NCBI GenBank assembly: GCA_048938855.1 | Contig: JBHLLT010000035.1 | Span: 1 to 23,841, forward strand | DNA: 23,841 nucleotides | Reading direction: 5' to 3' | Origin: Promethearchaeota archaeon | GTDB lineage: Archaea > Asgardarchaeota > Lokiarchaeia > Sigyniarchaeales > SOKP01 | Shown: piece by piece, positions 7,776 through 23,245 of the stretch | Layout of the letters: each line of letters opens with the position of its first letter | Numbering within the stretch: position 1 is the first letter of the stretch | Program-made: the position numbers and the translations under genes | The notes under the pieces: model-generated | What the model was told of the DNA's origin: nothing | The model's database searches: none | What the model saw: only the letters and a program-made list of their open reading frames with translations

Positions 7776-8486
7776 ATGACAAGAGCTCTCTATATGGATG
7801 ACTCTTATTTAAAAAGCTGGAAAACTAAAGTTGTTAGCGTTAAAGATGATAAATATGTAATTCTTGAGAGTACAGCTTTCTATCCTAAAGGTGGTGGACA
7901 ACCGTGGGATGAGGGATTTATAACTAAAGATGATCAAAAATATAGAGTCATATATGTTGGGAAATTCTCAGGTAAAATAAGCCATGAAGTAGATAAACCT
8001 GGATTGAAGGAAGGAGACGAGGTTTCTTGTGAAATTGATTGGAATCGGCGATATACCTTTATGAGATATCATACAGCATCTCACTTAATAAGCAATATTC
8101 TGTATAATAATGTAAATGCTAAAATTACGGGAAATCAGATTGAATTAGATAAGACAAGAATGGATTTTTCCATGAAAGATTATTCTCCAGAAAAATTACG
8201 TGCTTTTGTGGATGAAGCGAATAGAATAATAGAACAGGACTTACCAATATCAGTTGATTATATGACAAGAGAGGAAGTTATGGGAAAATCTGAATTAGCA
8301 CGTTTAGCTATTGGATTACCTAAAAATATTAAAGAATTTCGCATTGTTAAAATTGGAGATATCGATATACAAGTCGATGGTGGAACTCATGTTAGTCATC
8401 TTAAAGAAATTGGTAAGATAGAGTTAACTAAAACGGTAAATAAAGGAAAAGACAACAGAAGAATGTATTTTGTTTTGATAAAATAA
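7776..8486 (+). CDS. alaX: Alanyl-tRNA editing protein AlaX-M
   Basis: T.FYP.GGGQP.D.G, MRYHTASHL (HxxxH) and QVDGGTHV motifs; 236 aa is the AlaX-M size. Confidence 0.93.
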   Translation: MTRALYMDDSYLKSWKTKVVSVKDDKYVILESTAFYPKGGGQPWDEGFITKDDQKYRVIYVGKFSGKISHEVDKPGLKEGDEVSCEIDWNRRYTFMRYHTASHLISNILYNNVNAKITGNQIELDKTRMDFSMKDYSPEKLRAFVDEANRIIEQDLPISVDYMTREEVMGKSELARLAIGLPKNIKEFRIVKIGDIDIQVDGGTHVSHLKEIGKIELTKTVNKGKDNRRMYFVLIK

Positions 8487-9692: not shown

Positions 9693-11441
9693 TTGGTTAT
9701 GGTTGAGAAGGATATTAAGTACAAAAAGAAAAGAAAAATTTTTAAAACGTTAAATAAAAAACAAAAAATCGGTTTGGGAACTACAAGTGCCATAGCAGTA
9801 GCTGCTATTTTTAGTGGGGTTTACTTTTTTTTTGTACTACAAGAAAAACCAGAGTTCATTTTTAAGTGCGGCTTAGCGGATGGTCCCGATTCTATTGATC
9901 CACTTAAAAATCCCGTTCCAACAAATGAGAATCTGATAATATTAGATCAAATTGCAGAAGGTTTATTCGCTTATGATCAAAATAAAACAGATACACCTGT
10001 AGTTCCGAACTTGGCATTAAATGGGACTTGGAGCCCAGATCACTTAAATTTCACTTGTATATTAAGAACGAATGTTACTTTCCATGATGGAACACCTTTT
10101 AATGCCCCTGCGGTTAAGTGGAACTTCGAGAGAATTTATAGATTTATTGAAACTATGCCCAATGATCAAATATGGGCTTGGGAATCTGCATATCTAACTT
10201 CAAAAAGAGAACCAATTATCAACCATACTGAAATAATTGATAATTATACCATAAAATTTGTGTTAAACCAACCTTATGTTCCTATAAGAGAATTATTAGC
10301 CCTTTGGAACTCTTATATACTTTCGCCAACTTCTACGCCCGAAGATGATTTTATCGATATTAGAACAGGAAGATTAGTTGGAACAGGACCTTTCATTCTC
10401 GATAACTGTGAGGTAAATTATTGGGGAGAAAGTACAGAAACCCAAATGCATGCTAATCCAGATTATTGGGATGGAGTGCCATCAATTAATAAAGTAGTTT
10501 TCCTAGATTTGGGAGATTCAGAAAGAATAGAAAGAATGCTATCTGGAGATCTTTCATATATTTGGGGGAATCGTGATAATGACACACTTGATAATTTTAA
10601 ATCAAATCCAGAATTTAGGGTATTGCCGAAAAAAATGATGAGTTTATGGTATTTTGGAATGAATAACAAAATTATAAATCTTACAATGAGAAAAGCAATC
10701 TCATACGCTTTTAATTATAATCATTATCTTAAAGAAGTGTGGGGAGGGCACGCAGAGAAGGCAAAATCGCCTCTTGCAAAGCAAATGCGATATTCTAACT
10801 GGGAAGATTTTAATGTACCCTATTATAATATTACACGAGCAAGACAAATTTTACTAAATGCAAATTGGCCTGGTACAGCCGGTTTAACAGCTAACGATAA
10901 TATTTCGGCTGGAAATGAATGGGAATCATTGGCAAATAGCCCCTCCCCTCTAGGAATATATAATTTTTCAGTTAGTAACTCATTTATGGAATTAGCAGCT
11001 AATCTAGCTATTGAAGATCTTAAACAAATAGGATTGAAAGTAAACTTAAATTCAATGGGATCTTTAGTATTAGAGCATAAATTGAATGAGGGGGAATTTA
11101 ATATTGTGACTCTAGGATGGGGAGTCGTTTCTAATGACCCTGTCGATGTTATTAATCCATTATATTCAAGTAAACTTGATGGAATAGGAAATTATTGGAA
11201 TTTTAATGATACGCAGATACAACAATGGATGGAGGATGCTCTTCAAGAGTTCAATGAATCTACTAGAGAGCAATTATACTTTAATATTCAGCAGCTTCTT
11301 ATTGAAGAACTCAATCCAGTTGTTTGCCTGGCTAATCCTATAAGATATGATATTTGGGATTCAGATGTAAAGGGGATTCCAATTGATGGTGCTCCTTTAA
11401 GATTCATCCTAAAATATGCATATCTAAATGATTCATCTTAA
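9693..11441 (+). CDS. ABC transporter substrate-binding protein, family 5 (OppA/DppA-like), membrane anchored
   Basis: EGLF, PNLA..W, LR.NVTFHDGTPFNA.AVKWNFER, VGTGPF, NPDYW, MRKAISYAFN motifs; N-terminal TM. Likely start is ATG at 9699. No permease or ATPase genes adjacent. Confidence 0.93.
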   Translation: MVMVEKDIKYKKKRKIFKTLNKKQKIGLGTTSAIAVAAIFSGVYFFFVLQEKPEFIFKCGLADGPDSIDPLKNPVPTNENLIILDQIAEGLFAYDQNKTDTPVVPNLALNGTWSPDHLNFTCILRTNVTFHDGTPFNAPAVKWNFERIYRFIETMPNDQIWAWESAYLTSKREPIINHTEIIDNYTIKFVLNQPYVPIRELLALWNSYILSPTSTPEDDFIDIRTGRLVGTGPFILDNCEVNYWGESTETQMHANPDYWDGVPSINKVVFLDLGDSERIERMLSGDLSYIWGNRDNDTLDNFKSNPEFRVLPKKMMSLWYFGMNNKIINLTMRKAISYAFNYNHYLKEVWGGHAEKAKSPLAKQMRYSNWEDFNVPYYNITRARQILLNANWPGTAGLTANDNISAGNEWESLANSPSPLGIYNFSVSNSFMELAANLAIEDLKQIGLKVNLNSMGSLVLEHKLNEGEFNIVTLGWGVVSNDPVDVINPLYSSKLDGIGNYWNFNDTQIQQWMEDALQEFNESTREQLYFNIQQLLIEELNPVVCLANPIRYDIWDSDVKGIPIDGAPLRFILKYAYLNDSS

Positions 11442-12448
11442 GTTGGGATACTATAGAGATCCCACAGATAATTGCCCCCATCCCATTTAAAGAAAGAGAA
11501 ATTATAGTTATTTTGAGTGGGATAATCTGTGGAATTATAATATTGTCCAATATCTGGTGGAATTATATCCCTGTCGAATCCATCCCATGAATTTTCTGGT
11601 TCATGACCATGGCTTGTTGCATTATAAAATACAAATCGAGCTCCAATATCGGGAGAAAAATCTTTATAAATTACGGTGATATTCCCAGTTTTTGTGATTC
11701 CCATCCCAGTAATATTAGCCCCCATTTCAGAATATTGGATAATCTCAAATAAAATATACCCAACTTTATTTTTGAGAGTCAAAAGACTATTATGAGTATA
11801 TTTGTTATTTTTAGTTATTAATGTTGCATTTCCATCATTTACAGTTCCAGATATATTCCCTCCCACCTCACAATTAATAAATTCATAAATTATATCACCG
11901 TTAATTACATTTAAGAGTAAATTGCTTACAGTAATTCCCAATGCAGAGAAATTTATAGCTCCTTCGCTTACAAAAGCATTTATGCTAAAAACAATATCAG
12001 CCCTTAGCTGAATATTAATCTTAATATTTGCTATGTGTAAGTTGGAAAATTCTACTAACTTGTCAAAAATTAATACCATTGTGAAATTTAATGGTGATGT
12101 CAAGTTTTCCCAGCCTATACTAAAGAAATCCAAATATGATTTACTTCTTAAATTAGGACCTGCCATTTCAATATCTACGTCTATCTTGACGAGATAATCT
12201 ACAGATGGAGGAACGTATTTTATATCAATAATACCTACATCAGTAACTAAATTCAATTCTTTGTTAATAGGTGGGGCCTCTGTTCTATATTTATATGTGA
12301 GAGACTTATTAATTTTGCTAAAGTGCGCAAATTCAGAAAAAATAACTAATGTAGGAATACTTATAATAGAAAAAACGAAGATTATGTATATTATAATAAG
12401 TATTGCTTTATAATTTCGCTCCATCTTAAATAAGTGAAACAAGTCCAA
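11438..12448 (-). CDS. Membrane-anchored DUF4097-like beta-solenoid protein (paralog of 3055..4152)
   Basis: Shared blocks with 3055..4152: DFF.I.WEN, LR.D..(Y/F), QY.EMGANITG, IGA.F. Likely start is ATG at 12424. Convergent 4-nt overlap with the SBP gene. Confidence 0.7.
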   Translation of the reverse strand: MDLFHLFKMERNYKAILIIIYIIFVFSIISIPTLVIFSEFAHFSKINKSLTYKYRTEAPPINKELNLVTDVGIIDIKYVPPSVDYLVKIDVDIEMAGPNLRSKSYLDFFSIGWENLTSPLNFTMVLIFDKLVEFSNLHIANIKINIQLRADIVFSINAFVSEGAINFSALGITVSNLLLNVINGDIIYEFINCEVGGNISGTVNDGNATLITKNNKYTHNSLLTLKNKVGYILFEIIQYSEMGANITGMGITKTGNITVIYKDFSPDIGARFVFYNATSHGHEPENSWDGFDRDIIPPDIGQYYNSTDYPTQNNYNFSFFKWDGGNYLWDLYSIPT

Positions 12449-12606: not shown

Positions 12607-13599
12607 ATGGTTTTTGATCCAATAGAACGTTTTTTTTCAAGTATGGCTATTTTTATGCTAGCTCTCTGCAGTATTTTATATTTCTCTAAAGGATTGAAGA
12701 AAAAGGATAAAAATGAAAAATTTTTATTAGTAGGATTTGGTGTATTCTGGTTTATTATCGCGGTAACACGATCCTTCTTTTTTATTGTCGATTACATTCT
12801 AGAAGGGATATATACCGGAGATTTGAATATAATAATCCTGACCTACGATGTTACTAATTATATTATTTTATATTTTTACTTATATCTGTATGGTTATGTA
12901 TTTTTTAGTACTACAGTTGTAACATTATTTTTTATTAGATCCTCATTGAAATCGGATCGTGAATTTCAAATTATTTCTTCAGTCATAACCTTTGGATTAG
13001 TACTTTTCTTAATTGGATGGAGCTCAGAATTGATTCTTATAAAATATTTAAACCTTTTTTCTCCTAGTTTAGGACCAGTTTTTATTCTCTTAGGAGGCTT
13101 TATTGCTACATCTCCACAAATTGGGCATTTCGAATTATTTTCAAAAAAAATCATTAAACCAATTATTTTGATTATGATATGTTTACTAGTTGTATTTGTG
13201 ATTTCAATGTTATTCATTAATCTTCAATTAGTAGATTTATTTTTAATTATAATTTGGATTGGTCTTCTTACAATAATTTTTATTGCGGGTTATTTAATTT
13301 ACTTTTATAGTAGAAGAGGAGAACCGGCTGTTGAGAAAGATGATCTCCAAGATACTTTAAGAGTTTTTAGTAAGCCTTTACATTTTAGCATAGAAGATGT
13401 TAAATATAGCAGGGATAAAGGGTTCTGTTTAGTATGTAAAAATAAGATTTCAGGATTAAGCTATATTTGTCCAAACTGTGAAGCATGGTACTGTTTAAAA
13501 TGTCGTGATGCTTTAATTGAGATAGAAAATTCATGTTGGGGCTGTGAAACTCCATTTATAGAGAGTAAATCTAAAAAAATGTTCAAAAGATCTAAATAA
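12607..13599 (+). CDS. Polytopic (~7 TM) membrane protein with C-terminal C4C4 RING-type zinc finger; candidate E3 ligase
   Basis: About seven hydrophobic segments followed by CLVC-x10-CPNC-x4-CLKC-x10-CWGC. Confidence 0.75.
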   Translation: MVFDPIERFFSSMAIFMLALCSILYFSKGLKKKDKNEKFLLVGFGVFWFIIAVTRSFFFIVDYILEGIYTGDLNIIILTYDVTNYIILYFYLYLYGYVFFSTTVVTLFFIRSSLKSDREFQIISSVITFGLVLFLIGWSSELILIKYLNLFSPSLGPVFILLGGFIATSPQIGHFELFSKKIIKPIILIMICLLVVFVISMLFINLQLVDLFLIIIWIGLLTIIFIAGYLIYFYSRRGEPAVEKDDLQDTLRVFSKPLHFSIEDVKYSRDKGFCLVCKNKISGLSYICPNCEAWYCLKCRDALIEIENSCWGCETPFIESKSKKMFKRSK

Positions 13600-13622
13600 T
13601 CAAATATAAAAAGGTGAGTTAA

Positions 13623-13811
13623 ATGATAGAATTTATATTTCTAATTCTAATTATTTCATTAGTAATTACCTTTATTGTTTCAATCTTAATATCGATATGG
13701 GTGTACATTGATGCTAAAAGCAGAGAATTGAATGTTTTCTTATGGATTCTAATCGTGTGGGTAATTCCATTTTCATTAGGAATAATATTATATCTAAAAG
13801 GAAGAGAATAA
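13623..13811 (+). CDS. Small 2-TM membrane protein (PLDc_N-like)
   Basis: WVYIDAKSR....LWILIV..IP..LG.ILYL pattern; AGGTGAG SD upstream. Confidence 0.75.
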   Translation: MIEFIFLILIISLVITFIVSILISIWVYIDAKSRELNVFLWILIVWVIPFSLGIILYLKGRE

Positions 13812-13904
13812 CAAATTAATACAACACTAATATCTTTTTTAACATTAATATCTATAATAAAATTAATTATTGATTTTAAAAAAGTAATTATCTCTGGTGT
13901 AAAA

Positions 13905-14945
13905 TTGATTCCTGTTCAAATTATATTAACCGGAGAAAAGGGTGTAGGAAAGCATACAATATTGAATTTATTCCCAGAGGAAACTATTTTAGAAATTGAT
14001 TTAAATTTAAATGAATTTCCAAAAAAATCTATTGATCTAACTAAATTAGGAAATATCGACCAATGTATCTTACGAATTATTGATTTAGAAGATTTGATTG
14101 ATAAATTTGATTCTTTCAAAGATTTATTAGATTCTACTGACATAATTTGTTTTGTTTTAAATTCCGTTATAAATGATATAGAAAATAATCAAAAAATATT
14201 ATCAAATTTAAAAGAAAAAGTCTCAGATGTTAGTTTTTATATAATTGCTAATTTTCAGGATAAAGAAGAATTAGCATTAGATGTGAATAAAATAGAAGCA
14301 ATATTAAAAGAGAAGACTTTTGGATTTTCTGCCATTCAACATGCTTCTAAAGAAAGAATATTTTCGATTATCGACGAAATTGTAAGAATGACAATTGAAG
14401 GAAAAGATGAAAAAAAGCACAAATTTACAAAATACGATGATTTATGGTTAGAACTTGAAAAAGCAAGAGTATTTGAAACAGAAGGAGACAGAATTAAAGC
14501 GATAGCAAAATTTTCAAATGTAGCATCTCAGATCAAAAACCTCTCTTTAGTGATGGAATTAGAAAATGAACGAGAAGAGCTTGAAGCATTACATTATTTA
14601 TGCAAAGCATGGGAATGTATGATATATGCAGAAGAATATCAGGAACCATTGAAATTTTCAGAAGCAATGAATCATTTTGTTCAAGCAAGCGAAATTATTG
14701 ATGACAATAAGCTAAAGCAAGTATTATTAGGAGATTCAGAATTTTGTAAAATTCTAAAGTTTGGTATGGAATTCGAGCATTCAAATCAAACTAGAATTAG
14801 GACTAATGATTATTTGAAAATTAAAGAATTTTTTAATAAAATAATGGAGTTATATAAACAAGGGAGTTTTGAAAAAGGTGTAAATTGGGCTTTAGCTAAA
14901 GCTTCTTATTTTGATGAATTTGTTAAGGAATTTAAAAAAGATTGA
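13905..14945 (+). CDS. Degenerate small-GTPase-like (Ras/Arf fold) domain plus helical TPR-like C-terminus
   Basis: G1 GEKGVGKH (no S/T), G3 region IIDLED (no DxxG), G4 NFQD, G5 FSA. TTG start with GGTG upstream. Confidence 0.75.
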   Translation: MIPVQIILTGEKGVGKHTILNLFPEETILEIDLNLNEFPKKSIDLTKLGNIDQCILRIIDLEDLIDKFDSFKDLLDSTDIICFVLNSVINDIENNQKILSNLKEKVSDVSFYIIANFQDKEELALDVNKIEAILKEKTFGFSAIQHASKERIFSIIDEIVRMTIEGKDEKKHKFTKYDDLWLELEKARVFETEGDRIKAIAKFSNVASQIKNLSLVMELENEREELEALHYLCKAWECMIYAEEYQEPLKFSEAMNHFVQASEIIDDNKLKQVLLGDSEFCKILKFGMEFEHSNQTRIRTNDYLKIKEFFNKIMELYKQGSFEKGVNWALAKASYFDEFVKEFKKD

Positions 14946-14950
14946 ATAAT

Positions 14951-15205
14951 TTACCCCCCTATTACTTTCGCCCATAATTCGAGTTTTTCATTTTCTTTTA
15001 AACCATAATTTTTAATTACATCTCCAATTGTAATCGTGTTAGGTAATTCTTTTCCTTTATAAATTAAAGCAAAAGAACGTTGTTCAGAAGTTATGATATT
15101 CATATGCTTAACCACAATAGTTATAATACTTTCTACTAAATGCCTTTCATTGACATCTAATTTAATTATTTTACCTCCTCGCGTATCTTCAACAGAGACT
15201 ATCAT
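14951..15205 (-). CDS. Ubiquitin-like protein with C-terminal Gly-Gly
   Basis: 84 aa beta-grasp size; LIYKGKEL resembles ubiquitin LIFAGKQL; YGLKENEKLEL; ends VIGG-stop. Confidence 0.9.
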   Translation of the reverse strand: MIVSVEDTRGGKIIKLDVNERHLVESIITIVVKHMNIITSEQRSFALIYKGKELPNTITIGDVIKNYGLKENEKLELWAKVIGG

Positions 15206-15300
15206 ATTATTATAATATTTTTTTGATTAATTCAAGATATTAGTAAAATAATAGTACCCACATTATAATTATTGTTAAGTAAATAATTACATGCTAAGCA

Positions 15301-15344
15301 TTTTTAGATTTAACTTCGGAAGATTTTATAAAGTCCGAAGTGTA
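15301..15344 (-). promoter_or_regulatory. 44-nt palindromic operator/promoter, copy A (upstream of the Ubl gene)
   Basis: Minus strand reads TACACTTCGGACTTTATAAAATCTTCCGAAGTTAAATCTAAAAA, a perfect CTTCGGA-N13-TCCGAAG; ~95 nt before the Ubl ATG. Confidence 0.75.
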
Positions 15345-15420
15345 GGAAACTTTGAAGAATTTCTAATATTAATTTCAAAATTTAATTAAGTTCATAAAAT
15401 AAAAAAAAGAATTTAGTTTT

Positions 15421-16086
15421 TTATTTTTTGATTTTTCTCTTTTCAACTATAATAATTGAGACTATGACTGTAGCACTAATTAATAAAAAGTAACTAAATC
15501 CTGGTACACTTGGGACTCCAGCACTTACAAGTTCATATGTATGATAATCCGTAGAATATTTACTAGTACCATTAACGAGAAATCCTCTCTGTTTTTCATA
15601 CCATACTTCACTCCCAAAACTATCCTTTAAAATCCAACAATCCATCGTATCATGCATTCCTTCACCAGTAACGTTGAATATAGTGTCAGCATTACCTGTA
15701 TGAACCCACTTCCAAATATTACACATTATAATTGAATCATCTATGGAAATGTCAGTGTGAATCCAAAAGCAATCATGAGTATCATTGAATACTCCGAAGT
15801 TCTGGTTATTTGATGCAATCCTAGTACTGGTGTTAGAATCCCAAAACCCCACATCATTAATAGGAGTTCCCAATCTCCATGTTATATGCATAATCTCACT
15901 CGATCTTCGAGTGAATATAAGTGTGCTTTTATGGGTTGGCATCACGCTAGAACTAAGGTTATGAACAACCTGCAATCCATTAGGTATACTAACTACATTG
16001 GAATGTCCAATCATCAGAAAATTGGAAAACAATATTGAACACATAATGAGCGACAAAAAGCCTTTTATTGCATTTGATCTTTTCAT
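15421..16086 (-). CDS. Secreted cell-surface protein with VPGF-TM-basic C-terminal sorting signal (Loki-CTERM/PGF-CTERM-like)
   Basis: Signal peptide; C-terminus VPGFSYFLL..TM..KRKIKK; paralog of 17810..18466. Confidence 0.85.
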   Translation of the reverse strand: MKRSNAIKGFLSLIMCSILFSNFLMIGHSNVVSIPNGLQVVHNLSSSVMPTHKSTLIFTRRSSEIMHITWRLGTPINDVGFWDSNTSTRIASNNQNFGVFNDTHDCFWIHTDISIDDSIIMCNIWKWVHTGNADTIFNVTGEGMHDTMDCWILKDSFGSEVWYEKQRGFLVNGTSKYSTDYHTYELVSAGVPSVPGFSYFLLISATVIVSIIIVEKRKIKK

Positions 16087-16140
16087 AATAATTTCAACCT
16101 CAATTTTATTTAGATCCTAGATAAATATATCATCATGTTA

Positions 16141-16184
16141 TTTTTAGATTTAACTTCGGAATCTTGTAAAAAGCGCGAATTAAG
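16141..16184 (-). promoter_or_regulatory. 44-nt operator/promoter, copy B
   Basis: Minus strand reads CTTAATTCGCGCTTTTTACAAGATTCCGAAGTTAAATCTAAAAA; ~55 nt before the ATG at 16086. Confidence 0.75.
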
Positions 16185-16190
16185 TTTTTA

Positions 16191-17519
16191 TTATTTGTTC
16201 CATCTTTTCTCTAATTCATCTAGGATAGTATATTTTGGAAAATCTTTCAAGAGAGATGACACAAATCCTTTCTTTAATACTATTTCCTTATAATCATCCC
16301 AATCAAAATTTATTATATTTTGATAAACCATACCTTTGAACGTATCTATAACATTGTTAGAAAAATCTTTTCTCTTAAAATCTGTATATAAATATTTGAT
16401 ATATTTAATGAGAAATTTCCCTATGAAGAGCTTCGCTTTTTGATCAAATAATTTATTGCTTATATCTTCTACAATATTTTCGATTAAACTTATTGTTTGT
16501 AAACTTTTCTCTTCTTCTGGAATACTTAGTTGCAGTTTTTGAAGAAAACTAAATTTCATTATGTTTTCATTTATGATTAAGTTTAACATCTTCTCAAATC
16601 TTCCGTTCACTCTGAAATAATAATTTCGATTTCCATCAAAACTTAAATTAAAGAATTCTGATTCATACAAATTCTCTTCCACTATTTTCTGTATAAAAAA
16701 ATTGAGTGTGTTTAATTTAATATCAAATTTGGACGAAAAATTCTCATGAGTTATGAAGTCTGGATACATAGTTGGATGATTAATACAAAGAAATAGAAGA
16801 ATCTTATAAAATTCTCGTTTAGAAGATAATAAACTTTCAGCTTTTGAATAATCCAGATGATTTATTAAATCTAAAAAGATAACCTTGACTTCATCATTAT
16901 CAATTTCATACTTTTCAAGAAAATTCTTTGCTTGTTCTTTAATATCCTCAAGTCTTTTGATTTCTTCGTTTAAAATTTTCTGATAATCTAAACCATATTT
17001 TTTTAATACATTTGAATACTCTGATTCACCAGTTTTAGCCAATCGATATTTATTATCATCTTTTTTAATATATCCTTTTTCTAATAAACGATTTATGTTT
17101 TTTGAAAGAGAATTATTATTGATCAACAGTGGTTTTTCAAGAAAATCTTTCCAAGTGCAAAATTCATTATTATATAACATCCAGAGAATTATATGATCAT
17201 AATTTCGTTTATTTAGGATTAATTCAGGAGGATATCTTAATTTTCTATCGAAAGAGTCTTTAAATCTTAGATCAAAATATCTTTTTCTCCCTTCTGATGT
17301 AATCATATAAAGGCCTTTCTCTTTTTTTTCCACATATCCATTAGTCATTAATAGATTCATATATTTTGATAATGTTGCCAGACTAAATGCTAATGGCTCC
17401 TCTAAAAAGTCGGACCAATTGCATTCCTCATTATTATTTAGCATCCACAAGATAATATATTCAAAATCTTTTTTTTCAATCCCTACTGGGCATATGATCT
17501 CTTGTGGTGGATAATTCAA
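16191..17519 (-). CDS. Putative transcriptional regulator with tandem winged-HTH domains
   Basis: Two homologous N-terminal units (YPP..I......(F/Y)..IILWML.NNE.C.W.DFLE.PL......LSK..N.L...GY..K....Y.....G) with MarR/wHTH character. Confidence 0.75.
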   Translation of the reverse strand: MNYPPQEIICPVGIEKKDFEYIILWMLNNNEECNWSDFLEEPLAFSLATLSKYMNLLMTNGYVEKKEKGLYMITSEGRKRYFDLRFKDSFDRKLRYPPELILNKRNYDHIILWMLYNNEFCTWKDFLEKPLLINNNSLSKNINRLLEKGYIKKDDNKYRLAKTGESEYSNVLKKYGLDYQKILNEEIKRLEDIKEQAKNFLEKYEIDNDEVKVIFLDLINHLDYSKAESLLSSKREFYKILLFLCINHPTMYPDFITHENFSSKFDIKLNTLNFFIQKIVEENLYESEFFNLSFDGNRNYYFRVNGRFEKMLNLIINENIMKFSFLQKLQLSIPEEEKSLQTISLIENIVEDISNKLFDQKAKLFIGKFLIKYIKYLYTDFKRKDFSNNVIDTFKGMVYQNIINFDWDDYKEIVLKKGFVSSLLKDFPKYTILDELEKRWNK

Positions 17520-17706
17520 TCTCTTAGCACTAATCCTTCAAAAACACCTTGGTACTCTTATTCTCTTGGATTACTATTTTAATATATTATCAATTTTTCT
17601 TGAAATACTTATTTAAAAATATGCTACATCAGTTTATATTTCTTTTTTAAAAAACGGGTATATAATTATATTTCTATATATCCTAATTTTTTTTAATGAT
17701 ATTCAA

Positions 17707-17750
17707 TAAACTTCGGACTTTTTCTAATCTTTCGAAGCTTAATCTAAAAA
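17707..17750 (+). promoter_or_regulatory. 44-nt operator/promoter, copy C (divergent intergenic region)
   Basis: TAAACTTCGGACTTTTTCTAATCTTTCGAAGCTTAATCTAAAAA; ~60 nt before the ATG at 17810. Confidence 0.8.
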
Positions 17751-17809
17751 TGTATAGGGAGAGTAAATAATATTTAACAATAATTTTAAATAAAAAAGGT
17801 TTTACAAAA

Positions 17810-18466
17810 ATGAAAAAAAGTTGGTCAATAAGAATCTTTTTGTTTATCATTATTTCTTCGATCTTCTCTTCAAATTTTTTAGCTTTTGGATATTCTAATG
17901 AAGTGGGAATAATTGATGGCTTGATCGTTAATCACATCTATAGATACTATTCTGTTGCTGAAGATGTCCCTTCAAAACTTACTTTCAAAAAAAATCCGAA
18001 TCAAATGTTTCATATTAAGTGGTATTTTGGGGGTTCATGGAATGTGGGAGGATTTTGGGATGTCAATACCAGCACGAGAATCGTATCAAATCAGCAGAGT
18101 CCTGGACCAGATAATGGAGATCATGATCATTCATGGATTTGGACGGATGTTTCGCTGGATGATCAAATTTTAATATTTAATTTCTTCTCAAACGTAGACC
18201 ACGTCTTCAATGTGACAGGTGAAGCGATGCATGGCTCAATGGCAGTATGGATACTAGAAGACAACTATGGGAGTGAAGCGTGGTATGAAAAGGAACGAGG
18301 ATTTCTCGTTAATGGTACATTTAAATATAGTTCAAGCTGGCAAAAATACTCTTTTGTAAGTGTAACTGTTGATCCAGGAATTCCGGGATATAACTATTTT
18401 CTACTATTTGGAGCAATTTTAGGATGTGGAATTATTTTAATTAAATATAGACAAAGAAAGAAATAA
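17810..18466 (+). CDS. Secreted cell-surface protein with IPGY-TM-basic C-terminal sorting signal (paralog of 15421..16086)
   Basis: Signal peptide; shared blocks GFWD.NTSTRI.SN, FNVTGE.MH, GSE.WYEK.RGFLVNGT.KYS; C-terminus IPGYNYFLL..TM..RQRKK. Confidence 0.85.
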   Translation: MKKSWSIRIFLFIIISSIFSSNFLAFGYSNEVGIIDGLIVNHIYRYYSVAEDVPSKLTFKKNPNQMFHIKWYFGGSWNVGGFWDVNTSTRIVSNQQSPGPDNGDHDHSWIWTDVSLDDQILIFNFFSNVDHVFNVTGEAMHGSMAVWILEDNYGSEAWYEKERGFLVNGTFKYSSSWQKYSFVSVTVDPGIPGYNYFLLFGAILGCGIILIKYRQRKK

Positions 18467-18480
18467 TGTTTTATAAATAT

Positions 18481-18527
18481 AAAAAATAGTGCCATTAAAA
18501 GCGCTTTAATTCTATTTTTTTTTTTTT
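18481..18527 (+). terminator. Hairpin plus T13 terminator after 17810..18466
   Basis: AAAAAATAG/CTATTTTTT outer stem, ATTAAA/TTTAAT inner stem, T-run at 18515-18527. Confidence 0.55.
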
Positions 18528-18575
18528 GAAATTGAAGTTTATATTATTGAACAGTCATCTTAAGCATTAAAGGAT

Positions 18576-18619
18576 TAAACTTCGAGCTTTTCCTAATCTT
18601 CCGAAGCTAAATCTAAAAA
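18576..18619 (+). promoter_or_regulatory. 44-nt operator/promoter, copy D
   Basis: TAAACTTCGAGCTTTTCCTAATCTTCCGAAGCTAAATCTAAAAA; ~60 nt before the ATG at 18681. Confidence 0.8.
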
Positions 18620-18680
18620 TAAAATAGTGAGATACATAACAATAACCTTAATATAACATAAAGAGGTTGGAAAAATAAAA

Positions 18681-20015
18681 ATGAAAATGAAAAGAAAATC
18701 AAGTATATTATTCGGAATTTTAACATTTACAATGATATTCACAATGTTTACTCTGACAATAGGACCCGTACTCGCTGATTCACCTACATTTGTTGTGTCT
18801 CCATCAGGAGGAGATGATACAGCAAACATTCAAGACGCATTTGATGCAGCAATTGCAGCAGGTCCTGGAAGCACAGTTCAGTTAACTTCGGGACAATTTT
18901 ATACTAATGAAATTATAGTTGAAAATTTTTATGGTACATTTAAGGGGACAGGCAAGGATCTTACTAAAATTGATGTCCTTAGAGGATTAGATCCTGGAGC
19001 GCCAGGAGTTTCCACTTTTATGGGTAGTCCTCATATATTTTCATTCGTAGGAGGAGATGTGCTTATCTTAGATATAAGCTTTGATATTACTCCTTATGAA
19101 CCTGCTGAACAATGGGGGCCACCACCTCCCGATGGTTGGTGGTACGATTTATTATCAGTTATTTTAATAGCTGGAGATATAAATTCTCAAATTGAAGATA
19201 TTAAATTTAAAGGTCATGAAGGGACAGCACTCTATGATCCCTGGCATCCTCTCTTTTCTGTAAAAAGCTATAATGTCAGAGTAGGAGTTGAATACGGGGG
19301 CGGGTTACCTACAACTGGAAGACATGTAATTACTAATTGTGAATTTAACTCGCTATGGTTAGGTATTACTGCTTACGGGTTAATAGACTGTGAATTGGCA
19401 ATTAAATCAAACTTGATTCAAGGAGGGGCTATTGGAATAATTAATGCTGATAATGGTAATTCAAAATTTGAGATTTCTCATAATGATATTGAAGCAAATG
19501 CTTTTGCTGGTATATGGGTGATGCAATTTGCTCCATCTCCTTGCCAGTGGCTTATAACCCATAACATTATAAGACCATCAATAATGGCTGATGGTGTTTG
19601 CTTAGAAGATTATACAGGATTAGGATCACTCGATGCAGTTATCTCACATAATAAAATTATATGCGATACATTCTGGGGTGGAATTTGGACAACAATGGCT
19701 CAGGACGCTCTTGTCATTAACAACATTATTTTTGGTACAGTAGATTATGGTATAGCATGTTATTATGCCTATAACACTCTACTGCTTGGTAATAATGTTC
19801 AAAACGTTGATGCCTCTTGGGCTCACATTGTCTTGCTTTGGTCGAGTGAATGTGTAGTTGTCGGAGGTTCAACAAAAACAAATGTGTTAGACGTCGGTGG
19901 TTACAACAATATCATAGTTGGGATGAATAATATGCAAGGTAACTCCCCTGGTCCAGAAATACAAGAAGCATTGGAACAGAAGATGGAACTTCTTAAATCT
20001 TTTCCTAAGTTTTAA
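18681..20015 (+). CDS. Secreted right-handed parallel beta-helix (pectin-lyase-like/NosD-like) protein
   Basis: Signal peptide; GDDTANIQDAFD...GSTVQL..G.FY cap motif; repeated I.(H/N)N.I....GI units; more GC-rich than its flanks. Confidence 0.85.
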   Translation: MKMKRKSSILFGILTFTMIFTMFTLTIGPVLADSPTFVVSPSGGDDTANIQDAFDAAIAAGPGSTVQLTSGQFYTNEIIVENFYGTFKGTGKDLTKIDVLRGLDPGAPGVSTFMGSPHIFSFVGGDVLILDISFDITPYEPAEQWGPPPPDGWWYDLLSVILIAGDINSQIEDIKFKGHEGTALYDPWHPLFSVKSYNVRVGVEYGGGLPTTGRHVITNCEFNSLWLGITAYGLIDCELAIKSNLIQGGAIGIINADNGNSKFEISHNDIEANAFAGIWVMQFAPSPCQWLITHNIIRPSIMADGVCLEDYTGLGSLDAVISHNKIICDTFWGGIWTTMAQDALVINNIIFGTVDYGIACYYAYNTLLLGNNVQNVDASWAHIVLLWSSECVVVGGSTKTNVLDVGGYNNIIVGMNNMQGNSPGPEIQEALEQKMELLKSFPKF

Positions 20016-20106
20016 TAAGTTACTTGGATCCTATCGAGAATAATTCGTAAAAATCATTCAATATAAGAAAGGGAGATATAACAGAGGGTTGAAATTCTTA
20101 ATCAAA

Positions 20107-20196
20107 ATATAGAATTGGAGGCTTTAATTTAGGAATACGTCTTTTCGAATGACCACACCTAAAGCACTACACCTCCATTCTATATATCTTTTTTTT
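20107..20196 (+). repeat. Conserved ~90-nt hairpin element, copy 2, followed by a T-tract
   Basis: ATATAGAATTGGAGG/CCTCCATTCTATAT outer stem, TTTAGG/CCTAAA inner stem; core CTTTTCGAATGACCACACCTAA. Confidence 0.7.
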
Positions 20197-20277
20197 AAAA
20201 AAACTTTTATTTCTTAAGGTTTTGTTCATAAATTATTTTCCTACCACCGAAAACTATAAAAAAACAAGCGTACAGTA

Positions 20278-20410
20278 CAACGCTCTTATACTTTCGTATA
20301 TAATAATCAAGAATTACCTAATAAGATTACAATCGCGGATGTGATCCATAAATACGGTTTAAAAGAAGAAAAAAAACTAATTTTATGGACAAGAGTTATA
20401 GGAGGTTTAG
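20278..20410 (+). pseudogene. 5'-truncated second ubiquitin-like gene
   Basis: Translates QRSYTFVYNNQELPNKITIADVIHKYGLKEEKKLILWTRVIGG, 27/43 identical without gaps to the C-terminal half of 14951..15205. In-frame TAA at 20257 upstream with no 5' start; ends GGA GGT TTAG, the stop displaced by one extra T. Confidence 0.85.
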
Positions 20411-20424
20411 AAAATTTAATTTTT

Positions 20425-20991
20425 TTAATCATCTTTTATTATGATAATACCATCATTTTCTTCTTTTTCTGATTCCTTATCATTCTCCTCAGATGCGTAT
20501 TGCTTCTTAAGTTCTTCAATTTTTTGTTTTTTAAAGAATTTTGTAGCTTCAAAACATTCAGGATAATCAAGTGGATCGTCAGGATTAGGATTTTCTACTA
20601 AAATTTTCAATGCCCTAATTGTAGTTACCAAATCGGATAATCGAGACCACTTCTTTAATATATTTAAGCAAATATATCCTGTTCCTGATTCATTTGATAA
20701 AGACAATTCGACTGGATGTATATTAGGATGAAAAATATTCGAAAGCCATGAAAAATCAATACCACCAGGATAAGGAAATGAACGATTAATTTTTAAATAT
20801 ATACGATGTGTCCTTTTTGGCTTTAAATTACCATTTTCCTTAACAAAACCTAATGCTTTTATGTTTAATATTAAATCGACACCATTACTATCCATTTTTA
20901 TTGAGTTTTCTTCAAGAACATCTAACTTTTTTACATTATTTAGTTCATTATCAATTCTATCTTTCCATATCTCATAAGGAAGCTCTGGCAT
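20425..20991 (-). CDS. Ubiquitin-conjugating enzyme E2 (UBC fold)
   Basis: FPYP, IFHPNI (HPN motif), GYICLNIL..W catalytic Cys, L.NPNPDDPL; acidic tail. Confidence 0.92.
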   Translation of the reverse strand: MPELPYEIWKDRIDNELNNVKKLDVLEENSIKMDSNGVDLILNIKALGFVKENGNLKPKRTHRIYLKINRSFPYPGGIDFSWLSNIFHPNIHPVELSLSNESGTGYICLNILKKWSRLSDLVTTIRALKILVENPNPDDPLDYPECFEATKFFKKQKIEELKKQYASEENDKESEKEENDGIIIIKDD

Positions 20992-21015
20992 AATTATTCA
21001 CACCTTTTTTTCCTT

Positions 21016-21897
21016 TTAATTTTTTTTAAAAGAACATGTCCAGCATTCTGGATTTTTTAATTTCTTAATTATTTCAAATTTATTTAAAAGTCCATTATAA
21101 TTTAATTGTTTTCCTATTAATGGTTGACCGATGGTAGGATTCCACTTCTTTTTTTCTTTAAAATATTCAATTCCTAATATGAATTTTAACACTTGTTGAG
21201 ATTGTAATCCACCAATGATAGATGTGGTTGTTATAATAGCAGGGATTATTCCTAAAGTTTCACCATCTTCATTTTCTATTTCTTGTCCAGTGCAGGAGAA
21301 CTTTTTCCACATCAATTCTAGATCCATATCAGAAACATTACACTGGAGACAAGCAGCATCTTCTACTCCTGAATAAACTGACTGAACTGTACCAAAAAAT
21401 TCCTCAATTCCAGCATCCACAAATGGTTTTTCGTAATAAAATGCATAATTATTGGCTTCTAATCTTGCTTCAATATTATCTACACATGAGCAAATAATAT
21501 CAGACTCTTTATATAATGCTTTATCAATATCATTTAAGTCTTCTTTAATTGCTAGAATCTCTACATTTGGATTTAATTTTTTACATGCACTTTTTACAAC
21601 ATCAACTTTATATTCTTTCTTCTTTGCTTGTTCTGCGTTGAAAAGAATGCAGCGATTCAAGTTTGAAGGATTAATAACATCATAATCAATTAAAATTATT
21701 TTTCCCACACCAATTAATACAAGATTTTTTGCAACTTCGTTACCAATAGCTCCTGCTCCTATTACCATAATAGTTGAATTAGTAATTTTATTTTGGTTCC
21801 AACCTCTTATACGTTTTTGGCGATCAAAAATATCTGAATCTATAGATTCTTTCCCATTTACAGTGAAATCTTCAGGATCATCTTTTTTTCTTGACAT
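21016..21897 (-). CDS. Ubiquitin-activating enzyme E1 (ThiF/MoeB/UBA family)
   Basis: FDRQ, GAGAIG, DYD.I..SNLNR, CVDN..AR, Zn pairs CLQC and CWTC, candidate catalytic Cys in FSCTG. Confidence 0.93.
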   Translation of the reverse strand: MSRKKDDPEDFTVNGKESIDSDIFDRQKRIRGWNQNKITNSTIMVIGAGAIGNEVAKNLVLIGVGKIILIDYDVINPSNLNRCILFNAEQAKKKEYKVDVVKSACKKLNPNVEILAIKEDLNDIDKALYKESDIICSCVDNIEARLEANNYAFYYEKPFVDAGIEEFFGTVQSVYSGVEDAACLQCNVSDMDLELMWKKFSCTGQEIENEDGETLGIIPAIITTTSIIGGLQSQQVLKFILGIEYFKEKKKWNPTIGQPLIGKQLNYNGLLNKFEIIKKLKNPECWTCSFKKN

Positions 21898-21913
21898 ATT
21901 TTCGATTTATCTA

Positions 21914-22402
21914 TTATTTTTTTAATACTGCATAACTCAATGATTTATATCCTTTTTTTATATTATTATCAATCGTAAAAAATTCAAATTCATTTTGGAT
22001 GGGATCTACAACGAGAGCAACTTGATTTTCTTCGGGAAAAAAATATTTTTGAGTTACTAAATCTGTAGGAGATAAAAAACATCCGAGGTTTGGATGAGAA
22101 TGCCACCATCCTACAATTCTCAAATTTTCATTATTTTTTATCTTTTTAATTCTCTGAAATTTTTTCTGATATAATCCGGCAGTACCTTCTATTTGAGATG
22201 TGTAAGTTTTATCACTATAAACTGCTCCAATTAGAAATAGTGAATCCTCTATAATAGTATATATTTGATCATTCCATTTTAAGAAACTGCCTATTAGATA
22301 TCCAAAAATCTCTTGTTCTGAACTTTTGCAGAAATTTTTAATTTCTTCAATTGTTTCTTCATAGATGTAAATTGGAAAAACAAAATCTTCTTGCAATTTC
22401 AT
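21914..22402 (-). CDS. JAB/MPN+ (JAMM) metallo-isopeptidase, Rpn11-like
   Basis: EIFGYLIG (Glu) and VGWWHSHPNLGCFLSPTD = HxH-x7-S-x2-D; VALVVDP. Confidence 0.93.
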   Translation of the reverse strand: MKLQEDFVFPIYIYEETIEEIKNFCKSSEQEIFGYLIGSFLKWNDQIYTIIEDSLFLIGAVYSDKTYTSQIEGTAGLYQKKFQRIKKIKNNENLRIVGWWHSHPNLGCFLSPTDLVTQKYFFPEENQVALVVDPIQNEFEFFTIDNNIKKGYKSLSYAVLKK

Positions 22403-22968
22403 TTTTTTTCTAAATTTAGGCTTAATTCTTTAAATTTTGTATTTAACATTTCATTAGATAAACTAACGGCTTTTTGGGTAATTTCATTCATATCGTCATC
22501 TAACTCAATTATTAATTCACCTGGAAATAAATCCATTATTTTTGTCTTCCCTACTCCTACTTCTCCAACTAAGAATATTTTAGGCGGAATATAAATATGT
22601 TCTTCTACAAATTCATCAAAACTCTCAAATTTAGAGATATCAGAATTCCAATTTATTAAGTCTTTTTTATATCTCTCTATGAACTCAATCATCATTAATT
22701 CTAATTTTTCTCTTATTTCTTCCTCTGGATCATTTATATCTGCAAGTAATATAAAAATGCAAAATTTTTCATCATCATAAGAATTTATAATATCCAAGTT
22801 TCTAAAATTTAAAGATCTTATTTCTCCTCCCCCAATTTCTTGAGATATATTATGGATAACCATAAAAAATCCACTCACAAAATCATCTTCAATTTTAGTA
22901 TGACCAAAAAATGTCTTTGAATAACAGAGAATCCCACCTGACAAAATGATTAGTACTTTAGAAATCAT
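22399..22968 (-). CDS. Longin-like domain protein with truncated C-terminal P-loop GTPase segment
   Basis: aa 1-125 longin-like (SGGILCYSK, VSGFF..I, EI.S.NF); aa 127-170 KIFLVGEVGVGKT; stops ~50 aa after the P-loop; ATGA overlap with the JAB gene. Confidence 0.78.
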   Translation of the reverse strand: MISKVLIILSGGILCYSKTFFGHTKIEDDFVSGFFMVIHNISQEIGGGEIRSLNFRNLDIINSYDDEKFCIFILLADINDPEEEIREKLELMMIEFIERYKKDLINWNSDISKFESFDEFVEEHIYIPPKIFLVGEVGVGKTKIMDLFPGELIIELDDDMNEITQKAVSLSNEMLNTKFKELSLNLEKK

Positions 22969-23047: not shown

Positions 23048-23245
23048 ATGAAATCTTATTTAAACCTTAAAAAAAGTGGCTTAATTTTGAAAAAACAAAA
23101 GGATGATTTACAATTTCAAGATTCACACCCTCGAATCTTAGAAATTGAGGATCAAGAAATTGAGGAAAAAAAGCCACCGATTGACAACATTGCCTATTAT
23201 AAAATCGTAAATGAAACTAAAGAGACAAAATTAGAGGAAAAATAA
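23048..23245 (+). CDS. Short hypothetical protein
   Basis: 65-aa ATG ORF, charged, not shadowing another gene; no motif recognised. Confidence 0.4.
   Translation: MKSYLNLKKSGLILKKQKDDLQFQDSHPRILEIEDQEIEEKKPPIDNIAYYKIVNETKETKLEEK

Follow-up and report, generated by a model that had tools for sequence, protein, structure and literature searches.

The ubiquitin systems of Asgard archaea are regarded as precursors of the eukaryotic one, and those described so far rely on a RING protein that is small and soluble. The closest, Clusters I-II of Caldiarchaeum subterraneum and Asgard archaea (Hennell James et al. 2017, PMC5654768), encode a Gly-Gly Ubl, a ThiF-type E1 and a UBC E2 with HPN and Cys, together with a RING-type finger and an Rpn11-like JAMM protease. 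Pro-Ubl forms of Caldiarchaeum need trimming (PMC5654768), and Cluster I/II E1s mostly have a ubiquitin-fold domain (UFD), which Cluster III E1s lack (PMC5654768 supplement). We analysed a 23,841-nt stretch of DNA (the window) from an uncultured Loki-type Asgard archaeon, which encodes counterparts of these Cluster I-II proteins, with a RING-like finger and an E1 that has no UFD. It probably encodes a third, lineage-specific Ubl conjugation system of one Loki-type Asgard family, with membrane RING-like and longin-GTPase partners. We found no published description of this module. All of the ORFs described are present, at the following positions.

9693-12448: membrane-anchored SBP_bac_5 solute-binding protein (plus strand; Pfam SBP_bac_5 4e-63) and single-TM protein (minus strand)
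12607-13599, plus strand: candidate E3 of 330 aa, a 7-TM protein whose RING-like zinc finger, with eight ligands, is at the C-terminus (alignments, AF2)
13623-13811, plus strand: small 2-TM protein
13905-14945, plus strand: Arf-fold GTPase paralogue, no longin domain, helical C-terminal extension (Pfam Arf 0.024)
14951-15205, minus strand: intact Ubl of the second-cassette type, 84 aa
15300-15344, 16140-16179, 17707-17751 and 18576-18620, unstranded: four copies of a palindromic element of ~45 nt (repeat search)
15421-16086, minus strand, and 17810-18466, plus strand: two Loki-CTERM surface proteins (Loki-CTERM 17.4 bits, under the 19.9 cut-off)
16191-17519, minus strand: double-wHTH regulator (Pfam wHTH)
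18681-20015, plus strand: beta-helix secreted protein, downstream of the last element copy
20272-20406, plus strand: remnant of an E2-proximal Ubl, C-terminal ~45 codons
20425-20991, minus strand: divergent UBC-fold E2, 188 aa (UQ_con 3.9e-9)
21016-21897, minus strand: minimal E1 of 293 aa, adenylation domain only (ThiF 2.5e-51)
21914-22402, minus strand: JAB/MPN+ metalloprotease, Rpn11-like, 162 aa (Pfam JAB 1.4e-11)
22399-22968, minus strand: longin domain plus P-loop stub, 189 aa, first gene of the operon
23048-23245, plus strand: small charged ORF, divergent from the operon

The JAB, minimal E1 and E2 genes form a tight operon with the longin gene as first cistron; from longin through JAB and E1 to E2, the first two genes overlap by 4 nt, and the two following junctions span 16 nt and 24 nt. 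A convergent group lies 5 kb away, with genes for a Gly-Gly Ubl, the 7-TM RING-like protein, the 2-TM protein and an Arf-fold GTPase that has no DxxG. The first-pass annotation of this DNA had called a complete Ubl-E1-E2-JAB set and had noted that the window contains no ESCRT genes; both hold. Its operon 'longin-P-loop > JAMM > E1 > E2' stands in order, spacing and motifs, but its first gene has proved to be a longin-GTPase fusion shortened by an in-frame deletion.

The core enzymes keep their catalytic residues. The JAB motif HSHx7Sx2D, the E1 motifs GxGAxGNE, CLQC/CWTC and KFSC203TG, and the HPN and C108 of the E2 are conserved (16-19 orthologues each). The closest solved structure to the JAB protein is the Caldiarchaeum Rpn11-like protein 6fjv (2.1e-12). 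The E1 best matches the active adenylation domain of eukaryotic Uba1 in the PDB (~1e-25), with MoeB behind (4e-19); checking the Pfam domain span revealed no C-terminal UFD, since ThiF fills residues 32-286 of 293. At 36.7 bits the E2 passes the UQ_con cut-off of 27 bits, compared with 88-92 bits for other E2s of the same genome. Inserted residues separate its HPN from the catalytic Cys, and its acidic tail finishes in a run of Ile. Its close relatives number more than 270, and the source names that bear a taxon are all Promethearchaeota/Asgard, save one given as 'archaeon' only.

The intact Ubl has the C-terminus VIGG and ends exactly at Gly-Gly, which is invariant (13-18 orthologues). It aligns over its full length to residues 6-76 of ubiquitin, with GG on G75-G76; the single-ubiquitin score is weak, and the match to the Pfam ubiquitin model (1.6e-3) is under the cut-off. 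Its identity to the second-cassette Ubl in the relatives' loci L028, L029 and L041 is 90% (88% by tblastn for L028), and its identity to E2-proximal Ubls, which have 1-4 residues past GG, is ~62%. Next to the E2 in the window lies a stub that matches residues 40-84 of the intact Ubl at 60% identity (E 1.7e-12); in relatives this position is taken by a whole, convergent Ubl gene. The Ubl/2-TM/RING cassette that normally abuts the E2 has thus been lost here, leaving the stub, and the intact Ubl/GTPase/2-TM/RING set is a paralogous second cassette 5 kb off. Relatives keep an intact two-cassette arrangement, of which this locus is a rearranged and partly eroded version.

Across about 15 congeneric genomes the order is longin-GTPase, JAB, E1 and E2, followed by Ubl, (2-TM) and RING genes in the opposite orientation. 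At least 16 genomes, from three genera, have the RING-like domain ~0.5-4 kb from the E2. Among the 60 family genomes sampled in both searches, the RING family is found in 32/32 E2-positive and 3/28 E2-negative genomes, counts that overstate the case because related genomes are not independent. The first-pass annotation had named a lack of co-occurrence as refuting; other genomes do carry both the longin-GTPase and the RING-like membrane protein along with the operon, and synteny and phyletic tallies show a conserved module. The RING-like family is strong in only one Asgard family, labelled Lokiarchaeia, and the full operon was likewise seen only there. L031, L042 and L041 keep the JAB-E1-E2-Ubl genes and are missing the adjacent RING or longin-GTPase, so neither is obligatory in cis. 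A canonical Ub-E1-E2-JAB operon sits elsewhere in the same genome, on contig C49, and the window module is therefore a separate system, as had been claimed.

The candidate E3 has seven long helices (AF2; hydropathy), and positive-inside loops place its finger in the cytoplasm. The ligands C274, C277, C288, C291, C/H296, C299, C310 and C313, spaced C-x2-C-x10-12-C-x2-C-x4-C/H-x2-C-x10-C-x2-C, do not vary among 33 sequences, save for a single change of Cys to His at ligand 5. This agrees with the RING cross-brace pattern C-x2-C-x9-39-C-x1-3-H/C-x2-4-C-x2-C-x4-48-C-x2-C. The protein had been called a ~7TM C4C4-RING protein; the helices and eight ligands agree with this, but the finger falls under the gathering score of every Pfam RING model (best zf-C3HC4_3, 1.2e-5, in one member), and we therefore name it RING-like rather than a proven RING. 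Prokaryotic RING families are reportedly the subject of work by Burroughs, Iyer and Aravind. Paralogues number up to 19 per genome and combine one conserved finger with two unrelated-looking membrane domains. The 2-TM protein between the RING and Ubl/GTPase genes, also predicted earlier, shows two hydrophobic segments, and in a subclade it has homologues at the same position (L028, L029, L030, L031, L038 and L041).

It is unlikely, on balance, that the zinc-finger membrane proteins are not E3s at all, and are instead substrates, Ubl/E2 receptors or unrelated C1/PHD/p44-like sensors beside an E1-E2 pair that works without an E3. The best sequence matches of the finger are to TFIIH p44 (first for the profile against the PDB, 1.2e-3), C1_2 and DZR and not to RING models. 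The residue past the last Cys is acidic or Asn, and the 'linchpin' Arg/Lys of many active RINGs is missing. Most paralogues lie away from the operon, and the Caldiarchaeum E2 auto-ubiquitylates E3-free (PMC5654768). However, the ligand spacing fits C4C4 RINGs, and sub-cut-off matches were obtained to zf-RING_2 in 19/26 finger sequences and, weakly, to Prok-RING_1 in 11/26, besides zf-C3HC4_3. The top Foldseek matches are RING/U-box domains (HRD1 RING, U-box/RING, Rad18, Ring1B; E 0.4-1.8, above 0.1 because the finger makes up little of a 330-aa model whose mean pLDDT is 65). Adjacency to Ubl and E2 is moreover tight and conserved, and the phyletic linkage complete among E2-positive genomes. 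We infer that the RING-like membrane protein may act as an E3.

The 189-aa longin gene product derives by deletion from a longin-GTPase fusion of ~291 aa. Against L028, blastn shows a 339-bp gap, an in-frame deletion of 113 codons, flanked by a 32-nt stretch matching both sides, and protein alignment places the product in the same way; a native longin-P-loop architecture was rejected on both grounds. The allele is real, as two independent Logan run assemblies carry it in identical form. AF2 gives the full-length orthologue a longin topology and an Arf-like fold. The longin domain (pLDDT 84) has strands at residues 2-9 and 14-19, a helix at 28-45, strands at 52-64 and 70-77, and helices at 82-105 and 111-124. 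It was assigned on the topology beta-beta-alpha-beta-beta-beta-alpha(-alpha) and on profile similarity to known longins, both of which it shows. Direct Pfam matches were all under cut-off; by hhalign it matches a protein of its own genome that scores above the Pfam Fuz_longin_1 cut-off (probability 84%, E 7e-6, 112 columns).

The longin-GTPase family keeps GxGVGKT, NFQD and SA at the G1, G4 and G5 positions, and its GTPase fold matches Arf/Arl/MglA by Foldseek (E ~5e-9). The G3 DxxG and catalytic Gln are missing: in all members the aligned site reads REIDLE(D/E)L, without Gly or Gln, and in the operon copy of the window the entire G3 region is deleted. The GTPase paralogue aligns to the G domain of the operon longin-GTPase, with GxGVGK, NFQD and SA kept and REIDLE replacing DxxG. 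Its stop codon and that of the Ubl are convergent and 5 nt apart, which agrees with the degenerate, Ubl-converging GTPase seen at first.

With two parts eroded, the system may be only partly functional in this genome. We consider it quite unlikely that it is in decay and has little function left, if any, as the deletion of the G domain and the loss of the E2-proximal cassette might suggest. In the same vein, the relative G011 (L041) has lost the longin-GTPase gene altogether, and searches of the family genomes did not find the module in about half of them. Against this, E1, E2 and JAB are intact with every conserved catalytic residue present, the deletion is in frame and retains the longin domain and the ATGA coupling to JAB, and two samples still carry the allele. 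In addition, Ubl, GTPase and RING are all intact in the complete paralogous cassette 5 kb off.

The palindromic element precedes the Ubl, the two surface-protein genes and the beta-helix gene by 55-100 nt, and is kept at equivalent places in L028 and L041, so the suggested tie between the Ubl and surface-protein genes has a shared upstream element behind it. The wHTH protein may be the regulator. The SBP_bac_5/single-TM pair accompanies the RING/Ubl cassette in a subclade; it is duplicated together with each cassette in L028/L029, and L038 has three copies next to its cassette. The small charged ORF has counterparts in the same divergent position in L028-L034 (tblastn, 42-75% identity), and family searches with it gave no match.

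An antiviral or conflict role like that of bacterial Ubl-E1-E2-JAB (Bil/Bub-type) or CBASS-associated E1/E2/JAB systems, raised earlier as an alternative, is very unlikely. The module is patchy within the family, varies in copy number and is frequently eroded; its E1 is without UFD, as in 'Cluster III'/bacterial-type systems, and its JAB matches BilC weakly (0.0045). However, PADLOC (library dated 2023) lent no support, giving generic E1-E2/JAB models only and leaving the E2, Ubl, RING and GTPase proteins unmatched. The closest solved relatives are eukaryotic Uba1, E2s and Rpn11/Caldiarchaeum Rpn11, the synteny is stable and looks vertically inherited, and the window is without mobile-element or defence genes. 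That the E1 and Ubl instead serve sulfur transfer (SAMP/Urm1/MoaD-like) is scarcely credible, since the minimal, ThiF/MoeB-sized E1 with its MoeB-like tetracysteine zinc site is accompanied by a UBC-fold E2 (HPN + Cys), a JAB protease and pro-Ubl forms that have no role there, rhodanese and cofactor-biosynthesis genes are absent nearby, and other ThiF paralogues in the genome are available for such roles.

Under the preferred reading of a third conjugation system, the UFD-less E1 would adenylate the Gly-Gly Ubl, load it on the conserved crossover-loop Cys and hand it to the divergent E2, presumably by thioester transfer. The polytopic proteins would recruit the E2 to the membrane through their cytoplasmic RING-like cross-brace finger and act on targets near the membrane, as E3s or as E3-like adaptors. 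The Rpn11-like JAB would strip conjugates and process pro-Ubl, since most orthologues have 1-4 residues past GG. With nucleotide motifs kept and no DxxG, the longin and Arf-fold GTPase is probably a regulatory or adaptor subunit and not a classical switch. Where the operon longin-GTPase is minus its G-domain core and the proximal cassette is deleted, as here, the paralogous cassette would supply Ubl, GTPase, 2-TM and RING proteins, its Ubl possibly being controlled, beside the wHTH regulator, by the element common to surface-protein genes. The system may act in membrane quality control or signalling.

A tentative extension, which we rate as doubtful, is that the RING-like proteins are receptor-like E3s coupling a membrane-sensed signal to Ubl conjugation via the dedicated E1-E2 pair and the switch-less longin-GTPase adaptor. 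This would amount to prokaryotic transmembrane signalling or membrane-protein turnover via Ubl tagging, in which, as in eukaryotes, a single E2 would work with many E3s. The module would be a further self-contained cascade in the same cells as the canonical one. If it is confirmed, membrane-anchored E3s and one-E2-to-many-E3 wiring, both eukaryotic hallmarks, were already explored in archaea, and a compact protein set becomes available for reconstitution. The natural 'deletion mutants' seen here, an allele reduced to longin and the loss of the proximal cassette, reveal which parts are dispensable in cis.

Compared with Clusters I-II (PMC5654768), the module has an E1 without UFD, a strongly divergent E2 and a longin-GTPase leading its operon, in a genome that already has a canonical operon. 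Its sole finger is on a 330-aa 7-TM protein, whereas Clusters I-II have a small soluble RING finger protein (srfp). The words 'GTPase' and 'transmembrane' have 0 occurrences in PMC5654768, which does not mention longin-GTPase or polytopic RING partners. With archaeal 'Cluster III' and bacterial Ub/E1/E2/RING/JAB operons, the module shares the UFD-less E1 and a compact E1-E2-JAB-Ubl set, plus the weak Prok-RING_1 matches; its solved relatives are eukaryotic or Caldiarchaeal. Eukaryotic polytopic RING E3s (Hrd1, MARCH, Doa10) likewise join a multi-pass membrane domain to a cytoplasmic RING-type finger, which in the module is all-Cys C4C4 and not RING-H2/RING-CH. The weak Foldseek matches of this finger are headed by the HRD1 zinc finger. 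The membrane domain has no detectable sequence homology to Hrd1/MARCH/Doa10 and its helical-bundle structural matches are non-specific, so we regard the likeness as an architectural analogy and do not claim homology. Longin/roadblock-GTPase architectures, both pairs and fusions, are abundant in Asgard archaea (Liu et al. 2020/2021, doi 10.1101/2020.10.19.343400); a longin-GTPase as first cistron of a Ubl-conjugation operon is mentioned neither there nor in PMC5654768. Unlike these Asgard proteins, MglA/MglB and Rag-Ragulator, the module has its longin domain at the N-terminus and a G domain without DxxG and catalytic Gln; in common with them, it combines a longin-type platform with an Arf/Rag/MglA-like small GTPase fold.

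An ORF check recovered all genes listed in the first-pass annotation and, again in line with it, no ESCRT genes in the window, which is the entire 23.8-kb contig C58 of a 3.95-Mb MAG (about 29% G+C). Public entries for nearly identical proteins bear the names Promethearchaeota, Lokiarchaeota or Lokiarchaeia. The genes considered here are as follows.

6544-7581, reverse strand: leucine-rich repeat protein
12607-13599, forward strand: 7-TM protein with a RING-like finger
13623-13811, forward strand: 2-TM protein
13905-14945, forward strand: GTPase paralogue, 346 aa
14951-15205, reverse strand: Gly-Gly Ubl
15421-16086, reverse strand: surface protein
16191-17519, reverse strand: wHTH regulator, 442 aa
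17810-18466, forward strand: surface protein
20272-20406, forward strand: Ubl stub
20425-22968, reverse strand: operon of longin-GTPase, JAB, E1 and E2

The ubiquitin-like module among these genes most likely specifies a protein-tagging cascade. Membrane-embedded RING-like proteins would be its specificity factors, the JAB would mature the Ubl and remove conjugates, and a switch-less longin-GTPase would act as a regulatory subunit.

In Pfam searches, the E1 matched ThiF (2.5e-51, residues 32-286 of 293), the JAB matched JAB (1.4e-11) and the E2 matched UQ_con (3.9e-9). Comparison of 16-19 orthologues revealed that the E1 keeps its nucleotide loop, two CxxC pairs and the crossover-loop cysteine (KFSC203TG), the E2 its HPN motif and Cys108, and the JAB its HSHx7Sx2D motif. 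The closest solved relative of the E1 is eukaryotic Uba1 (about 1e-25), with MoeB behind; those of the E2 are eukaryotic E2s, and those of the JAB are Caldiarchaeum and eukaryotic Rpn11 proteins. As a single sequence, the 84-aa Ubl of the window, which ends in VIGG, gave a sub-threshold Pfam match to ubiquitin, while a profile of 13 orthologues aligned to ubiquitin residues 6-76 with the Gly-Gly in register. The E2 C-terminus (20425-20500) is an acidic stretch around an Ile/Val run with a terminal Asp (DGIIIIKDD, DDIIIIEDD and DEIIIIDD are examples), and this tail is kept in nearly all orthologues (loci L028-L043). By its sequence it resembles a SIM-like or beta-strand-addition motif and is a possible docking site for the Ubl or a partner.

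Of 14 congeneric loci, 13 have an operon headed by a protein of 291-306 aa, in some cases by a tandem pair, or by an 870-aa long form. The AF2 model of one orthologue, from the relative's locus L028 (pLDDT 84, pTM 0.79), places a Ras-like domain after an N-terminal domain of beta-beta-alpha-beta-beta-beta-alpha-alpha topology. Its C-terminal part matched Arf/Arl/MglA structures at about 5e-9, and the entire protein matched a 376-member Asgard cluster with a TM of 0.91. A profile of the N-terminal part found, at 84% probability, a protein of the window's own genome that lies above the Pfam Fuz_longin_1 cut-off, and a protein-atlas feature search added no more than a faint hint (score 0.84, with Fuz_longin_1 present in 34% of one cluster). 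Searching with Pfam Longin (PF13774) gave no match in the genome and was uninformative, as the controls did not match either. Of the G-domain motifs, GxGVGKT, NFQD and SA are retained, and DxxG is replaced by REIDLE. The operon-leading gene had been described as 'longin-P-loop'; it is indeed present, but its 189-aa product is the longin-GTPase minus 113 codons, an in-frame deletion between two short similar stretches. The deletion is real, because the identical allele, followed by the JAB gene, was seen in two independent run assemblies. The 346-aa GTPase is a paralogue of the deleted part, without the longin domain and with a helical tail.

Two relatives, G007 and G017 (loci L028 and L029), carry two cassettes of Ubl, 2-TM protein, RING protein, single-TM protein and membrane-anchored SBP_bac_5 protein. 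The first abuts E2 and the second lies 10 kb away, with a wHTH regulator, two surface proteins and a beta-helix protein between them. The window shows this arrangement minus the first cassette, of which a 45-codon Ubl stub is left 14 nt from E2; G011 (locus L041) has the same deletion. Partial loss of the module's function in the window's genome is a real possibility. First-cassette Ubls carry 1-4 residues beyond GG and must therefore be trimmed, while second-type Ubls, including that of the window, end at GG.

Several other genes recur at these loci. Upstream in the window, the 345-aa protein consists almost wholly of leucine-rich repeats (LRR_4, 1.4e-51), and its orthologue in L030 has an unchanged neighbourhood. 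A conserved 76-aa protein adjoining the RING gene in relatives (L032 5515-5745, L033 6566-6796, L039 13955-14185, L043 4486-4716) resembles the C-terminal end of the window's wHTH regulator (motif ...FPKY.IL..IEK...). Rab-like small GTPases (about 181-193 aa) and proteins of about 347 aa, which look like a further fusion of platform domain and GTPase, recur within a few kb of the relatives' module (L029 6735-7280, L030 9890-10471, L033 7553-8596, L039 11072-12124, L040 4799-5344/9705-10923, L043 1480-3731).

A palindrome of about 45 nt, CTTCGGA-N17-TCCGAAG, precedes four genes at a distance of 55-100 nt: the Ubl, the two surface genes and the beta-helix gene. It is kept at the same places in L028 and L041 and is absent from those relatives' loci that lack the second cassette. 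The earlier proposal that the Ubl is co-regulated with surface proteins is supported by this shared, conserved element, which we infer the wHTH protein to bind. The surface proteins end in a PG(F/Y)-hydrophobic-basic tail, which matches the Loki-CTERM sorting domain slightly below threshold (17.4 against a cut-off of 19.9 bits). These two secreted paralogues flank the wHTH gene in inverted orientation, and their coding sequences form a 123-nt inverted repeat (75%). In L041 an extra palindrome copy (7801-7831) sits between the beta-helix gene and E2. The window has its Ubl stub at that place, and the copy may thus mark the junction of a deletion or recombination.

Both the AF2 model (mean pLDDT 65) and hydropathy show seven long helices in the protein encoded at 12607-13599, and Lys/Arg-rich loops predict a cytoplasmic C-terminus. 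The protein's final 60 residues contain C-x2-C-x10-C-x2-C-x4-C-x2-C-x10-C-x2-C, with ligands invariant in 33 homologues except for one Cys-to-His change at ligand 5. AF2 renders this region as a hairpin then a helix (pLDDT 74-81). The top Foldseek matches were the HRD1 zinc finger, U-box/RING, Rad18 and Ring1B, with E-values that were not significant since this domain makes up a small part of the 330-aa query. A profile search with the finger family returned the TFIIH p44 C4C4 finger first (1.2e-3), and its members match the Pfam RING, Prok-RING_1, C1 and DZR models, all below cut-off. We therefore call the finger 'RING-like'; E3 activity is suggested by its context, and the finger may not be that of an E3. 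VIA-align, which compared the whole membrane-protein model rather than the finger, gave non-specific helical-bundle matches alone, with Z up to 10.7, under the level meaningful for helical proteins. Some family genomes (G298, G307, G280, G088 and others) carry 16-19 copies of the finger, with tandem triplets adjoining E2 (G240:C9) and some members in open frames roughly 500-630 aa long. The finger is borne by at least two membrane domains that resemble each other little.

In homology searches the E2 turned up in 20 of 24 genomes from the genus and 40 of 80 from the family (6 of 13 genera); 11 genomes from one sister family gave no match. In a second sister family (L035) the E2 homologue stands alone, with no E1 or JAB alongside, so it does not attest the module beyond the family. 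Across 300 genomes of the phylum, strong finger matches were confined to the window's family, where 46 of 68 genomes had the domain at E<=1e-5, some weakly, with up to 19 copies each; one other family gave weak matches only, in five genomes. Among the 60 family genomes sampled by both searches, a strong finger match occurred in 32/32 E2-positive against 3/28 E2-negative genomes, a pattern rather than a statistic because related genomes are not independent. At least 16 genomes, from three genera, have a finger gene some 0.5-4 kb from E2, and the RING-like and longin-GTPase genes accompany the JAB-E1-E2 operon in relatives, as the first-pass annotation would have it. Its antiviral alternative received no support from PADLOC, though owing to patchy distribution and frequent erosion a defence role retains a low probability. 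The E2, the JAB and the pro-Ubl forms make a sulfur carrier role of E1 and Ubl unlikely. As Ufm1 homologues have been reported in Asgard archaea, a Ufm1/Uba5-type system was also considered and rejected: the HPN motif of the E2 is canonical, and the E1 obtains a better score with Uba1 than with Uba5.

The same genome encodes a canonical ubiquitin (110 aa), E1 (410 aa), E2 and Rpn11-like JAB (270 aa) in that order on contig C49 (L046 5765-8867); after them comes a gene for a 401-aa protein that matched no family. Contig C34 (L047 6535-10486) carries a third E1 (530 aa), and roughly 2 kb from it lies an E2. The tagging cascade proposed for the window is therefore an additional, divergent system.

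Our literature search, with many subscription papers outside its coverage, turned up no account of these genes as a set. Longin-GTPase fusions and ESCRT-linked ubiquitin clusters have been described in Asgard archaea; linkage of a longin-GTPase to a Ubl operon was not found in the Asgard literature searched. Hennell James et al. 2017 (PMC5654768) make no mention of GTPase or transmembrane partners. The nearest described systems are the Caldiarchaeum/Asgard operons, and the E1 of the module is without a ubiquitin-fold domain, as in 'Cluster III' of that study.
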